This document shows positions 21,444 through 33,017 of a stretch of DNA of 34,756 nt, in pieces. Source of the DNA: a virus. Taxonomy: Duplodnaviria; Caudoviricetes. The stretch is from positions 1 to 34,756 of the IMG/VR virus record IMGVR_UViG_3300010271_000143. One strand, 5' to 3'. Position numbers and translations under genes: made by a program. Each line of letters begins with the position of its first letter. Positions within the stretch are counted from its first letter, which is position 1. The notes below the pieces were generated by a model. The model ran no database searches, was not told the origin of the DNA, and saw only the letters and a list, made by a program, of their open reading frames with translations.

Positions 21444-21989
21444 TTATTTTGGTAAATTATCAATAGCATATTGTGCTTCTTCTTTCGTAAATTTCTCTCC
21501 ATACTCAGAAATTAATTGATCATATATAGCGCTTGGTGACATAGACATTTGCTCTTGATATATGATCGCTTTTTTTAAAGCATTTTCTTTCCAATCAGCT
21601 TTTACGTTCTCTATAGCATACTTAGCTGCTTCCTCAGAAAACTTTTCTCCATATTCAGACACAAGCTGATCAAATAAAGCAGCTTTTGACATATGCATCT
21701 GATTGGCATATATCTCTGCTTTTTTAAGTGCAGACTGATACTCTTTAGGAATGTTTTCTTTAGACTGCTCTTGTTTATGTGATTCCTGAACTGTTTTTTG
21801 GGTTGTATTTGCCTGCTCTACAGGTTTCTGTTGTGATACTTCTTCTGTTGTATTTGTTTGTTCCATAGGCTTTTGTGTTACTTCATCTGGTTTATCACCA
21901 CTATTACTTAAAGCTCCAATAATAATTATTATTACAATAACCCAAAACCACCAACGTTTAAATATAGATTTCTTCTGTTTTTCCTCCAT
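21444..21989 (-). CDS. ltp: Ltp-family superinfection exclusion protein (membrane-anchored, two Ltp repeats)
   Basis: N-terminal KKSIFKRWWFW plus TM; two repeats AL.KA..Y...M.MS...(F/Y)DQL.SEYGEKF..E.A.YAI.N. There is no lipobox cysteine, so it is TM-anchored. Confidence 0.92.
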   Translation of the reverse strand: MEEKQKKSIFKRWWFWVIVIIIIIGALSNSGDKPDEVTQKPMEQTNTTEEVSQQKPVEQANTTQKTVQESHKQEQSKENIPKEYQSALKKAEIYANQMHMSKAALFDQLVSEYGEKFSEEAAKYAIENVKADWKENALKKAIIYQEQMSMSPSAIYDQLISEYGEKFTKEEAQYAIDNLPK

Positions 21990-22118: not shown

Positions 22119-22152
22119 ATACTTGACGCGTAACAAGTATGTATGTTATAAT
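22119..22152 (+). promoter_or_regulatory. sigmaA promoter with an overlapping palindromic operator
   Basis: TTGACG(22123)-18 bp-TATAAT(22147) with TGn extension; perfect inverted repeat ATACTTG-N8-CAAGTAT (22119-22140) covers the -35. Confidence 0.8.
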
Positions 22153-22178
22153 ATAATCAGAAAGGAGGTGAACGGCGA

Positions 22179-22292
22179 GTGATAGAAACAATAAAGGACT
22201 TAGTTGAAATCGGTGTACTGCTCCTCACAGCGGCCAAACTAATAAAGGAGCTAACCGATAAACCTAAGTCCAAGCGGAAGGGGAGAAAATAG
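22179..22292 (+). CDS. 37-aa hydrophobic peptide with a basic tail, type I toxin-like (MIETIKDLVEIGVLLLTAAKLIKELTDKPKSKRKGRK)
   Basis: Hand-translated; very strong RBS AAAGGAGGTG 8 nt upstream of the GTG; amphipathic/hydrophobic helix plus K/R tail. Confidence 0.75.
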   Translation: MIETIKDLVEIGVLLLTAAKLIKELTDKPKSKRKGRK

Positions 22293-22332
22293 CTCCCCTT
22301 CTAAAAAATATTATATCACAACGCCGGAAAAT

Positions 22333-22488
22333 ATGAAATATAATTTTACAACTGTTGTTCTGATAGCACTCGTAATTCTCAACATCTTAGATGGTGACTT
22401 TACCAATCCGTCTTGGTTAGATTACATTAAATTTATTCTGCTTGCCATCGCTTTAGTACTCAGTATAGCAGAAAGGAGGAAAGACTAA
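22333..22488 (+). CDS. 51-aa two-TM membrane protein (MKYNFTTVVLIALVILNILDGDFTNPSWLDYIKFILLAIALVLSIAERRKD)
   Basis: Hand-translated; two hydrophobic helices; TAA overlaps the next ATG (TAATG); no linear SD upstream. Confidence 0.72.
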   Translation: MKYNFTTVVLIALVILNILDGDFTNPSWLDYIKFILLAIALVLSIAERRKD

Positions 22489-22706
22489 TGTATAATTTCA
22501 AATCCAAAGACGAACTTGTAGCATGGCTATCAGAAAACATTATTACTACGGCTGAAGCGGCTGAATTACTCGGCTGCTCTCGCCAGAATATTGACGACTT
22601 AATCAAACGCGGCAAACTTAAACCTATCAAATCAATTAATTATGTGCGGTTATTTTTAAAAGATGATATCGTTGCAAGGCTTAATCAAAAGAGGACTGAT
22701 ATATAG
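22488..22706 (+). CDS. HTH_17/MerR-like DNA-binding protein, probable autoregulator of the moron
   Basis: ITTAEAAELLGCSRQNIDDLIKRGKLKP; RBS GAAAGGAGG. Confidence 0.85.
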   Translation: MYNFKSKDELVAWLSENIITTAEAAELLGCSRQNIDDLIKRGKLKPIKSINYVRLFLKDDIVARLNQKRTDI

Positions 22707-22750
22707 GTCCTCTTTTTTAATTTTTTCTGTTTTGCAGTTAATCTGGCCAT
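22685..22750 (-). pseudogene. Remnant N-terminus of a pac-type (Terminase_2 family) small terminase, MARLTAKQKK...
   Basis: RBS GAGGTG plus ATG; the first 10 aa match the M(A)xLTxKQxxF start of Terminase_2 proteins, then the frame runs into the moron terminator. Confidence 0.55.
22687..22718. terminator. Bidirectional terminator closing the three-gene moron
   Basis: AAAAGAGGAC-N10-GTCCTCTTTTTT. Confidence 0.8.
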
Positions 22751-22782: not shown

Positions 22783-22812
22783 CAAAACACAAGGACCCAC
22801 CAAAGCGGGTCC
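22783..22812 (-). terminator. Hairpin in the late leader
   Basis: Minus strand GGACCCGC-TTTG-GTGGGTCC-TTGTGTTTTG. Confidence 0.55.
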
Positions 22813-22860
22813 CTTCTTCAAAAGGGAGTAGATTTACTTACAACTTTACTAACTATATAT

Positions 22861-22901: not shown

Positions 22902-23336
22902 TTAAATTCTTAATCCTCTTTCTTGTGCAAATAATAATCTAGCCTTACTTAACCATCTGTATATCTGTCTTTCGGATGCCGGTATGTGTATCTCAGCATA
23001 ATGCACCCTGCTTTTTATGTCTCCTCTTCTTAACTCTCTCCAACAATCCTTAAAATAAACATACTCTATAGCCTTTAGTATACTGCCACCCTGAGGCAGC
23101 TTCTCTATAAGATGCATTGCTTTTTCGACTGCCTCTAGATCCGCAAGTTCTGCTGCATTTTCCTCTATAGCTCTCTCTTTTGCAATCAAAGCACCCTCAG
23201 TTGGATTAACCACTCCTACACCTTTTTGTTTTTGCATATCGGCGACTATTTTTTCTATGTACTTTTTAGAACCACCCGTCTTTGCATAAAATCGGAAGGC
23301 TTCTGTTGCATAATCCCTGATGTGGTCTTTCTTCAT
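22902..23336 (-). CDS. Late transcriptional activator (RinA/ArpU-like)
   Basis: Last early gene; AVEKAM..IEYVYF..ASERQIYRWLSKARLLFAQERGL C-terminal HTH. Confidence 0.75.
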   Translation of the reverse strand: MKKDHIRDYATEAFRFYAKTGGSKKYIEKIVADMQKQKGVGVVNPTEGALIAKERAIEENAAELADLEAVEKAMHLIEKLPQGGSILKAIEYVYFKDCWRELRRGDIKSRVHYAEIHIPASERQIYRWLSKARLLFAQERGLRI

Positions 23337-30182: not shown

Positions 30183-30235
30183 GTTGTTTAACAGTGAAGC
30201 AATAACTAAAAATGACTATAAAAGGAGGCTTATAT

Positions 30236-31045
30236 ATGGATAAGTATTGTTCTAACTGTGGAGAACCTATACACGGGAATTTCTGCTCTAATTGCGGTAA
30301 ACCTGTAAAAAGCAATGTAGGAAACAATCACATAACCAATCCCGTTAACGTTTCAGGTATTAAAAGTAACAAAAAAGGCAGTGGCTGTTTAAAATTTTTT
30401 CTAGTCGGTTTCTTGTGTTTCGTCACAATATCTATAATCTCATCAATATTGAACATCAATAAAAATCCAAATCTTTCAACTAATAATAGCAAACAAACAG
30501 AGTTTCAAAAAATAACTGAAACTACACCTGAACAAGCAGATGCAATATTAAATATTCTTAAACAATGTGGAGTAGATAACATAACCTCTATTGTACCAGA
30601 TGAAATGTTAAACGATATGCATGAGGAAGGCGAAAAAGGTTATCGCTTATCTGCAAACGGTATAAATAATATTATTCTATATTTAAAATCAGATAAGACA
30701 GTAAATAAGGTACGGTATGCCGACAATGAACTCTATTCCAACGGAACTATACATTCAACATTAAAAGATTATACATTCACGCTTGATGAAAAAAGCAATT
30801 TAAAAACTTCGTGTCAAGAAGCAATAAAATCAATATTAAAGTCGCCTTCTACTGCAAAATTTCCAAATATAACAGAGTGGAAATTTGCTAAGCAAAACGG
30901 TCAAATAATTATACAAAGCTATGTTGATTCTCAAAATTCATTTGGAGCAGAATTAAGAAGCCAATTTCAATTTATATTAGATGCCAATGACTATACAATT
31001 AAATCTTTAATATTTGATGGCAAAGAAATGATAAATAACAATTGA
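30236..31045 (+). CDS. Zn-ribbon plus TM plus extracellular-domain membrane protein (likely start ATG 30236)
   Basis: CSNCG..CSNCG, one TM helix, C-terminal LKSPSTAKFP..VDSQNSFGA motif; RBS AAAGGAGG. Confidence 0.75.
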   Translation: MDKYCSNCGEPIHGNFCSNCGKPVKSNVGNNHITNPVNVSGIKSNKKGSGCLKFFLVGFLCFVTISIISSILNINKNPNLSTNNSKQTEFQKITETTPEQADAILNILKQCGVDNITSIVPDEMLNDMHEEGEKGYRLSANGINNIILYLKSDKTVNKVRYADNELYSNGTIHSTLKDYTFTLDEKSNLKTSCQEAIKSILKSPSTAKFPNITEWKFAKQNGQIIIQSYVDSQNSFGAELRSQFQFILDANDYTIKSLIFDGKEMINNN

Positions 31046-31547: not shown

Positions 31548-33017
31548 GTGAACAATTTTTCACAACACGTGCCGGGCTTCAGAAGTAACACTACGTGGAA
31601 AAAGGTTGTAGCCGTTATTTACTACATAATGGCACTATTAATGCTAAGTGAAGGCTGGGGAATGTGTCTGTTTGCTTTATCATTACCTTTTTTAGTATTT
31701 TCTTTCATAGACATTACACATTATAAGAAAAAAGCTATACCTCTTAAAAATGCACTCATTCCGTTCATCTTGTCACTAACTATTGCAGTAATCGGTTCAA
31801 ATATGATACCTAATGAATCAAAAACAGCACTTAATGAACCAGTAAAATTAGAAGAACAATCAGAGCAAGAACGACAAGCAAAATCAGCCGGAGAACAATT
31901 AAAATTAGAGCAACAAGTTAATCTTGAATTAAAAGCGGAGGAAGAAAAACATAAGGCTGAAGAAGAGGCTAAAAAATCTAATTCCGAAGTAAAGGGTCAA
32001 CTAAAGGTACATTATATTGATGTTGGACAAGGTGACAGCATACTTGTACATACAAATGATGTGGCTATGCTTATTGATGCAGGCGAACGTGGATATGGAC
32101 CCGGTGTTGTAAATTATATTAAAGATCAAGGTATAAATAAATTAGATTATCTTATATTGACACATCCACATGCAGACCATATTGGAGGAGCTACCTATGT
32201 AATAAATGCTTTTGACATAGGAAAAATAATTATGCCAAAAGCATCACACACATCACAGACATTTGAAAACTTATTAACCACAATACAAAACAAAGGAATG
32301 AAGATCACCTCCCCTAATCCAGGAGATGAATATCAACTCGGCAGTGCAAAATTTATCATAGTTGCTCCTAATAGTTCAAGTTACAATGACTTAAATGACT
32401 ATTCTGTAGTTTGCAAAGTTGTGTTTGCTGATACTTCTTTCCTGTTTACAGGAGATGCTGAAAGCATTTCTGAAAATGAAATAATTAACAAAGGATTTGA
32501 TATAAAAGCAGATATCCTTAAAGTAGGCCACCATGGTTCCGATAGCTCTACTACAGAACAGTTCCTAAAAACTGTAAGTCCAAAATATGCTATAATAAGT
32601 TGTGGTAAAGGCAATCAATACGGTCATCCTACACAGGCAGTATTAAATAGATTGGCAGCAAATAATGTGGAACTATATAGGACTGATGAGTCTGGAACCA
32701 TAGTAGCTACCAGTGATGGAAAAACAATAACATTTGATAAAAAGGCCAGTCCTATAAAACAAAACGCACCACCCGAGCAAGAAAGAAAAGCAGAATCTAC
32801 TCCAAAAACACAACCACAACAAGAAGCTAAATCTACAATTAAGAGTACACCTACACCTGAAACTGATAATGTACAAGAAGTTTATATAACAAATACAGGT
32901 GAAAAATATCATAGATCTAATTGCAGATATTTGAGAAAAAGTAAAATACCTATAAGCTTAAGTAAAGCAAAAAGCTCTGGTTATGAACCATGCAAAGTAT
33001 GTAGTCCACCCAGATAA
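31548..33017 (+). CDS. Membrane-anchored ComEC/Rec2-like metallo-beta-lactamase-fold hydrolase (putative nuclease) with a C-terminal Zn-binding domain
   Basis: N-terminal TMs (PGFRS..WKK), IDVGQGD, THPHADHIGG, FTGDAE, VGHHGS, YGHP, YRTD..G; C-terminal TGEKYH..C..GYEPCKVC. Confidence 0.9.
   Translation: MNNFSQHVPGFRSNTTWKKVVAVIYYIMALLMLSEGWGMCLFALSLPFLVFSFIDITHYKKKAIPLKNALIPFILSLTIAVIGSNMIPNESKTALNEPVKLEEQSEQERQAKSAGEQLKLEQQVNLELKAEEEKHKAEEEAKKSNSEVKGQLKVHYIDVGQGDSILVHTNDVAMLIDAGERGYGPGVVNYIKDQGINKLDYLILTHPHADHIGGATYVINAFDIGKIIMPKASHTSQTFENLLTTIQNKGMKITSPNPGDEYQLGSAKFIIVAPNSSSYNDLNDYSVVCKVVFADTSFLFTGDAESISENEIINKGFDIKADILKVGHHGSDSSTTEQFLKTVSPKYAIISCGKGNQYGHPTQAVLNRLAANNVELYRTDESGTIVATSDGKTITFDKKASPIKQNAPPEQERKAESTPKTQPQQEAKSTIKSTPTPETDNVQEVYITNTGEKYHRSNCRYLRKSKIPISLSKAKSSGYEPCKVCSPPR

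Follow-up and report, generated by a model that had tools for sequence, protein, structure and literature searches.

A small operon in a temperate siphophage prophage encodes two short hydrophobic proteins, and in predicted folds the start codon of the first gene pairs with a sequence just upstream of the second. Judged by sequence comparison among related cassettes, this long-range helix is a real, widespread, and selected RNA element, and folding together with strong comparative support predicts very confidently that it silences the first gene (ORF1). We lean towards a switch in which full-length mRNA would silence ORF1 and feed the second gene (ORF2) through a split ribosome-binding site (RBS), with 3′-trimmed mRNA freeing ORF1 and being cleared by an antisense RNA; that the Shine-Dalgarno sequence (SD) is used across the helix for ORF2 we regard, taken by itself, as probable.

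The prophage operon and its relatives

The window—the whole stretch of 34,756 nucleotides that was analysed—is an entire temperate siphophage prophage, with integrase, repressor, recombinases, terminase, tape measure, and endolysin. The cassette is a small plus-strand operon, opposite in orientation to the phage genes, that is ordered promoter, SD, ORF1 (37 aa), ORF2 (51 aa), ORF3 (HTH_17), and terminator (Table 1), with a transcription start predicted at about 22159; it is flanked by a late-regulator-like gene (22902–23336) and an Ltp superinfection-exclusion gene. An earlier sequence-only reading had proposed the helix and the shared SD; the antisense extended −10 box, the HTH_17 third gene, the −35 palindrome, and the type I toxin-antitoxin (TA)-like architecture go beyond it.

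Table 1. Features of the cassette, in window positions
Feature	Position	Strand	Evidence
Palindrome TACTTG-N8-CAAGTA over the −35 box, likely ORF3 operator	22120..22139	.	sequence
SigmaA-type promoter TTGACG-18-TATAAT with TG extension	22123..22152	+	11/12 consensus match
Extended Shine-Dalgarno AAAGGAGGUG, candidate shared SD	22161..22170 (GGAGG 22164-22168)	+	sequence; 0.95 unpaired, fold to 22347
Long-range helix 5′ arm, including ORF1 GUG	22173..22184	+	fold; swap rank 0 of 160
ORF1, 37 aa, hydrophobic segment and basic tail, type I toxin-like by sequence	22179..22292	+	
Hairpin internal to ORF1	22196..22271	+	predicted fold
GC-rich hairpin across ORF1 stop, without U tract	22276..22302	+	fold; candidate 3′-trimming barrier
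Antisense promoter: TG-n-TATAAT 22318-22310, weak −35 22337-22332	22310..22337	-	motif match
Long-range helix 3′ arm	22314..22326	+	fold
Unpaired 6-nt spacer, helix to ORF2 AUG	22327..22332	+	sequence; homologue mode 6-7 nt
ORF2, 51 aa, two hydrophobic segments, AUG start, without SD	22333..22488	+	
ORF3, 72 aa HTH_17 protein, own SD 22470-22479	22488..22706	+	PF12728 E 6.6e-12; phrog_4691
Intrinsic terminator-like hairpin, operon end	22687..22716	+	sequence motif

The Ltp-type lipoprotein gene (21444–21989, minus strand; PF07553, E 5e-48) is divergent from the cassette, and together they are a moron region. On the other side lie a hairpin with flanking A and T runs (22687–22716) and a minus-strand terminator (22791–22814), which insulate the cassette from opposing phage transcription; on induction, phage transcripts reading through them would be a source of antisense RNA. 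Elsewhere, accessory genes at 31548–33017 and 30212–31045, beside the integrase and a metalloprotease, have PHROGs of unknown function as their best matches.

ORF1 has the size expected of a type I toxin (hydrophobic and under 60 aa). Neither window peptide has a Pfam match, and ORF1, whose homologues were aligned, has none among the PHROGs either; a database search with ORF2 gave 45 matches at E≤0.001, itself included, mostly of 47–57 aa. Both genes are under purifying selection, with differences at the three codon positions of 0.20/0.12/0.40 for ORF1 (29 pairs) and 0.27/0.13/0.44 for ORF2 (25 pairs). A predicted ORF1-ORF2 complex scored 0.05, a value that speaks neither for nor against an interaction. 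We think it doubtful that ORF2 is an antidote or immunity protein; the sensor of transcription shut-off or superinfection that the sequence-only reading had suggested is improbable.

A third ORF of at least 45 aa follows in 64 of the 82 complete cassettes. Twenty-two of these match the window's HTH profile, and the others look by eye like what we take to be Cro/XRE, ribbon-helix-helix, or AbrB proteins; ORF1, ORF2, and the RNA layout are retained across cassettes, and the third gene is exchanged between small DNA-binding folds that seem unrelated. Palindromes with perfect arms of at least 5 bp occur in 46 of 80 homologous promoters, as against 25% of shuffles, and ORF3 is likely an autorepressor acting at the −35 palindrome.

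Relatives were gathered by HTH-anchored searches and promoter-plus-SD pattern scans, giving a sample of at least 795 sequences, many of them overlapping. A detector blind to the helix yielded at least 846 anchors, at least 206 distinct small hydrophobic ORF1s, and at least 148 then followed by a hydrophobic ORF2. Merging at 75% identity produced 101 cassettes, and removal of seven by eye on their proteins left 94 non-redundant cassettes (at least 94 overall). These comprise 81 in class A, with an SD-less ORF2, and 13 in class B, in which ORF2 has its own SD, under a class rule that was refined after a first look, with a net four cassettes changing class and one (L472) still wrongly in class B. 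Kinship inflates counts, the 94 cassettes falling into 40 ORF2 clusters; the helix-AUG geometry described below is present in 23 of the 36 clusters containing at least one class A cassette. Two new patterns provided a hold-out set of 242 loci with 12 new cassettes, of which 11 are class A and none was removed.

Cassette relatives are found in Acetivibrio, Clostridium, and Sporomusa genomes, and the pattern search matched in 18 of 401 genomes. Many of the 80 loci from the HTH-anchored genome search encode longer proteins whose HTH is C-terminal, and lack the cassette, and a close HTH homologue (63%) in L002 and L010 stands without ORF1 or ORF2 upstream. Searches of annotated phages by blastn and tblastn with the cassette DNA, ORF2, and one ORF1 homologue gave no match. 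One homologous cassette (L183) is covered by contigs of three RNA libraries, which carry neither strand nor ends, and one raw-read run contained 0 reads from it.

A long-range helix over the ORF1 start

In the window, CGGCG (22173–22177) pairs with CGCCG (22322–22326) and, after a 1×2 loop, GUGAUA (22179–22184) pairs with UAUCAC (22314–22319), for a helix of 11 bp. The sequence-only reading had these 5+6 bp right; two further pairs that it placed between 22186–22187 and 22311–22312 are absent from both the MFE and the centroid structures. The region folds at −58.4 kcal/mol (z −6.52; none of 200 shuffles is equally stable), which upholds the existence of the helix, and the pair 22174–22325 has a probability of 1.0 in the fold of 22159–22347 and of 0.64–0.98 in longer windows. 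Burial of the ORF1 GUG, another of its claims, recurs in 4/4 fold windows and extends to the homologues, 78 of the 81 class A folds having a buried ORF1 start. Loss of the helix on 3′ truncation, as had also been put forward, is seen in predicted folds: with the 3′ arm removed the first 37 nt, including SD and GUG, are wholly open in the window, and the ORF1 start is free in 52/81 truncated homologues versus 3/81 at full length.

The SD had been read as unpaired. Its freedom is 0.95 in the short window and drops to 0.13–0.46 once ORF2 coding sequence is included. This pairing looks compositional, because codon-shuffled ORF2 pairs as strongly (SD freedom across the 81 homologues is 0.45, versus 0.40 with shuffled codons); in folds of naked RNA, possible partners of the 5′ arm or the SD are the coding stretches 22365–22380 and 22400–22409. 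Free SDs do not separate the classes, being found in 67/81 class A and 9/13 class B cassettes. ORF2 itself lacks an SD in register, as claimed (best duplex 0; loose −3.5 kcal/mol), and its AUG is 0.79 free in the window fold.

Selection on the helix was assessed by a swap test, in which energies were computed for all combinations of 5′ and 3′ arms and those of cognate pairs were compared with swapped ones. For the 81 class A cassettes cognate arms pair at −11.3 and swapped arms at −5.5 kcal/mol (p<5e-5); the corresponding values are −11.8 and −7.0 within the window's ORF2 family (n=25), −11.6 and −6.6 for the window's 10 closest relatives, and −10.0 and −5.2 for the hold-out (n=11), each at p<5e-5. 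The excess of cognate pairing disappears once the windows are moved off the arm, and the 13 class B cassettes do not show it at the arm's position; pairing is better on the sense strand than on the antisense (55 versus 23). In an alignment of eight sequences one helix pair appears as G-C, A-U, and C-G; five cells show two-sided change, a weak signal alone, as 17 of 500 shuffles score as high. The structure is thus kept by compensatory change, as in a split RBS, and the check that the sequence-only reading had named, conservation in homologues, comes out in its favour through partner-specific arm changes in the 81 cassettes and in the hold-out.

Placement of the helix between SD and ORF2

A helix-blind duplex search over 120 nt placed the end of the best duplex 5–8 nt before the ORF2 AUG in 45/79 cassettes, versus 8.9% of 7347 swaps; this wide search missed the window itself, where pairing inside ORF2 (22365–22380) was preferred. 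With a narrower search window the AUG lies 5–9 nt past the helix in 67/79 (mode 6–7 nt), a figure to be read against the 51% of duplex-forming swapped pairs that also end at 5–9 nt because GUG/CAC is shared. Pairing falls from 0.62 at position −9 to 0.16 at −6 before the AUG. The AUG keeps its distance from the helix with a standard deviation of 2.0 nt, and is tied neither to the antisense −10 (distance 6–32 nt, standard deviation 6.1; 36/54) nor to the ORF1 stop (gap 34–86 nt, standard deviation 10.7). A tie to the antisense −35 was considered and rejected.

The other end of the helix lies 4–7 nt from GGAGG in 57/79 cassettes, even where the ORF1 start is 9–13 nt away, and its position against ORF1 spacing has a slope of 0.21±0.13, where tracking of the start codon would give 1; the helix 5′ end tracks the SD and not the ORF1 start codon. 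Linear SD-to-ORF2 distances of 148–255 nt shrink in the folded form to 9–14 nt in 57/79 (mode 12), as compared with a linear ORF1 spacing of 7–8 nt. The sequence-only reading equated 8 nt linear with 2+6 nt folded, which is right in this copy (counted from GGAGG, 10 nt linear and a predicted 4+6 nt folded, a functional spacing for an SD-AUG helix) but is not general, given modes of 12 versus 7–8. In the hold-out the spacing is looser, with 3/10 at 5–9 nt, 8/10 at 4–11 nt, and sums of 9–14 nt in 7/10. Compensation between left and right spacers was not found (Spearman +0.15 to +0.28), and avoidance of pairing in the spacer is unsupported, observed equalling expected at positions 2–5. One homologue (L582, 345–560) has an N-terminal extension of ORF1 matched by extra 3′ arm, and its spacing stays 5+7.

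The 13 class B cassettes are without the class A helix-AUG geometry; they mostly keep a long-range helix, with scattered 5′ starts (−7 to +18), followed by a normal SD. From the layouts of the two classes, therefore, an ORF2 either carries an SD of its own or starts at an AUG close beside the helix. This geometry, as read from the sequences, favours a shared SD and stops short of proving it.

A hairpin of −8 kcal/mol or better follows the ORF1 stop in 81/81 cassettes (median −16.4 kcal/mol) and is likely a barrier to 3′ trimming; a role as terminator was rejected, as only 6/81 have five or more U after it. An antisense extended −10 is present in 57/81, versus 3/81 in each of two control windows, and in the window sits inside the helix 3′ arm; from this promoter signal an antisense RNA is predicted to start at about 22303 and to run back over ORF1. 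The Listeria rli48 model (Rfam RF01479), in its full length, matches the window's antisense strand below threshold (E 2.9e-4, 34.1 bits) at 22167–22322, a span that takes in ORF1, the hairpin, and the −10 box. Further matches are full-length in L079 (570–729) and partial in L286 (586–698), with full-length matches at 31–34 bits as against a gathering score of 100; Listeria phage A118, 17–30 kb, has none. The parts of three papers on rli48 that were available describe it without a TA role (PMC5689173, PMC6786865, PMC2996996). As a lead only, these sequence matches suggest that rli48 comes from a cassette of this kind, as its antisense RNA.

The SPbeta yonT-yoyJ/SR6 locus passed the helix-blind detector and is among the 94 cassettes. 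It shares with the window an extended SD, GUG start, hydrophobic/basic ORF1, hairpin, second membrane ORF, antisense extended −10 promoter between the genes, and start-burying helix, and the window repeats its order of toxin-like gene, antisense promoter, and second membrane gene on one mRNA. The third genes differ, an HTH protein following in the window and yonU having its own promoter in SPbeta. Comparison of the window peptides with YonT and YoyJ by hhalign gave probabilities of 0.9% and 0.2%, values of low power for such short peptides; the window cassette has the same architecture as yonT-yoyJ and is a candidate member of its family. The SPbeta fold has an 8-bp helix that covers the yonT GUG. 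Its 3′ arm is located after the SR6 −10 box and 5–9 nt before the third in-frame yoyJ AUG, an ambiguous geometry of 4+5 or 8+9. The three AUGs are at L287 positions 16685, 16721, and 16742, the first (the annotated 83-aa start) inside the post-stop hairpin and the second overlapping the helix arm. The fit of the third to the geometry of the other cassettes suggests, from sequence, a 64-aa YoyJ.

Published work on this locus, available in part, bears on these points. YonT is toxic and yonT could not be cloned (Reif et al. 2018, PMC5848175), and RNase III is essential partly owing to yonT (Durand et al., PMC3531473). A 217-nt yonT RNA was seen (PMC5848175), which by arithmetic on positions ends before the 3′ arm; yoyJ homologues with a shortened ORF were called RBS-less (PMC5848175). 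Decay through SR6 and RNase III is reported, SR6 is stable (>60 min), and YoyJ is weakly toxic (PMC5848175); because of the last two a simple toxin/immunity pair fits poorly. A 2019 review states that the yonT-yoyJ/SR6 structure had not been probed (PMC6562991), and the available part of the PMC5848175 account has neither a long-range helix nor a shared SD. We infer that yonT constructs without the arm would free the toxin and that constructs without the upstream SD would silence yoyJ.

Proposed switch, alternatives, and known systems

As read from sequence, the operon has one promoter and one strong SD, followed by ORF1, the hairpin, the antisense promoter, the SD-less ORF2, and the HTH gene. 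The full-length mRNA is predicted to pair the ORF1 start with the arm just upstream of ORF2, looping out some 130 nt, and a 30S subunit at the free SD would then initiate at the ORF2 AUG, 4+6 unpaired nt away. By analogy with yonT and AapA1, trimming to the post-stop hairpin would remove the arm so that the same SD serves ORF1, and antisense RNA and RNase III would clear this trimmed, ORF1-active mRNA. ORF3 would repress the promoter at the −35 palindrome. Intact mRNA would thus give ORF2, and damaged or trimmed mRNA ORF1. More tentatively, such an mRNA-integrity switch, with one SD for two genes, may be widespread in Bacillota prophages, yonT-yoyJ being a mis-annotated member with a downstream yoyJ start; the antisense RNA and the interchangeable DNA-binding repressor would, just as tentatively, be further layers of it.

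The helix might instead only silence ORF1, with cleavage (by RNase III, for example) releasing an ORF2-ORF3 mRNA whose short leader permits SD-free initiation. A preference for AUG is a trait of leaderless-type initiation, and ORF2 starts with AUG in 79/81 cassettes (under a start rule that preferred AUG) while ORF1 does so in 26/81; a fixed cut would also give a fixed helix-to-AUG distance, and a bicistronic yoyJ/yonU RNA, an apparent processing product, was seen (PMC5848175). Processing does not, however, predict a helix 5′ end that tracks the SD, a cut inside these short, bulged helices would presumably leave a leader of more than 6 nt, and yoyJ alone gave barely any or no product in vitro, though from the longer annotated start (PMC5848175). 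We consider this account unlikely.

Translational coupling, in which ORF1 ribosomes melt the helix or reinitiate so that ORF2 is made together with ORF1, is slightly less credible again. Long-range coupling helices are known from the MS2 coat and replicase genes, and the 3′ arm, at −7 to −20 relative to the ORF2 start, falls within the 30S footprint. Yet the stop-to-AUG gap is variable and holds the stable post-stop hairpin, the start that the helix covers is that of ORF1 itself, the ORF2 AUG being free, and there is no ORF2 SD to unmask.

Marginally weaker still is the idea that the helix, 6–7 nt before the AUG, replaces the SD:anti-SD duplex, the upstream SD being dispensable. The right spacer is the tighter (standard deviation 1.3 in one measurement; 1.8 versus 2.0 for the left in another), and the missing left/right compensation agrees with this; the left spacer is narrow too, however, and tied to the SD, and class B helix starts are scattered. 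That complementarity and spacing are by-products of the antisense promoter (TG-TATAAT reads ATTATA-CA) and GUG starts is disfavoured and very improbable: the window's inner helix does use the −10 box, present in most class A cassettes, but outer pairs vary and covary, within-family swaps fail, and the −10-to-AUG distance is far from constant.

If the shared-SD switch is true, a ribosome can use an SD 150–250 nt upstream across a looped-out gene, one SD makes two genes mutually exclusive, and the split RBS reaches beyond local hairpins to act as a regulatory switch. Several oddities of the B. subtilis locus would be accounted for—yoyJ untranslatable alone, RBS-less homologues, and an unclonable yonT—and the cassette would be a potential compact part for synthetic either/or expression. 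A large family of small-protein cassettes also emerges from the analysis.

Several pieces of the proposed switch are already known: type I TA, long-distance silencing, and the split RBS. The combination appears new, a toxin and partner sharing an SD not having been found in literature searches of open-licence papers and preprints, available in part, nor in the available parts of two reviews (PMC6562991, PMC6563280). In the T4 gene 25 and gene 38 mRNAs an intervening helix brings SD and AUG closer together, from 27 to 11 nt and from 22 to 5 nt, respectively (PMC3014915), and thrS also has a split RBS (PMC3936740). The folded spacing of 9–14 nt resembles that of gene 25; the T4 helices are local hairpins serving one gene, whereas the cassette loops out a whole ORF and its SD has a competing start.

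Among silencing structures, the helix can be compared with the fbi/tac pairing of hok, a long-distance interaction that silences a type I toxin mRNA. The lambda S105/S107 holin and antiholin are a case in which RNA structure picks between the starts of a lethal and a modulating membrane protein; there, one ORF has starts two codons apart, whereas the cassette has two ORFs about 150 nt apart. Full-length aapA1 mRNA of H. pylori is silent through 5′-3′ long-distance pairing and 3′ trimming activates the toxin, the trimmed form of such mRNAs being likewise the one that is active and exposed to antisense RNA (PMC8167048). As described, aapA1 and hok hide the SD and switch nothing on, whereas the cassette hides a start codon, leaves the SD free, and places the next gene at the base of the helix.
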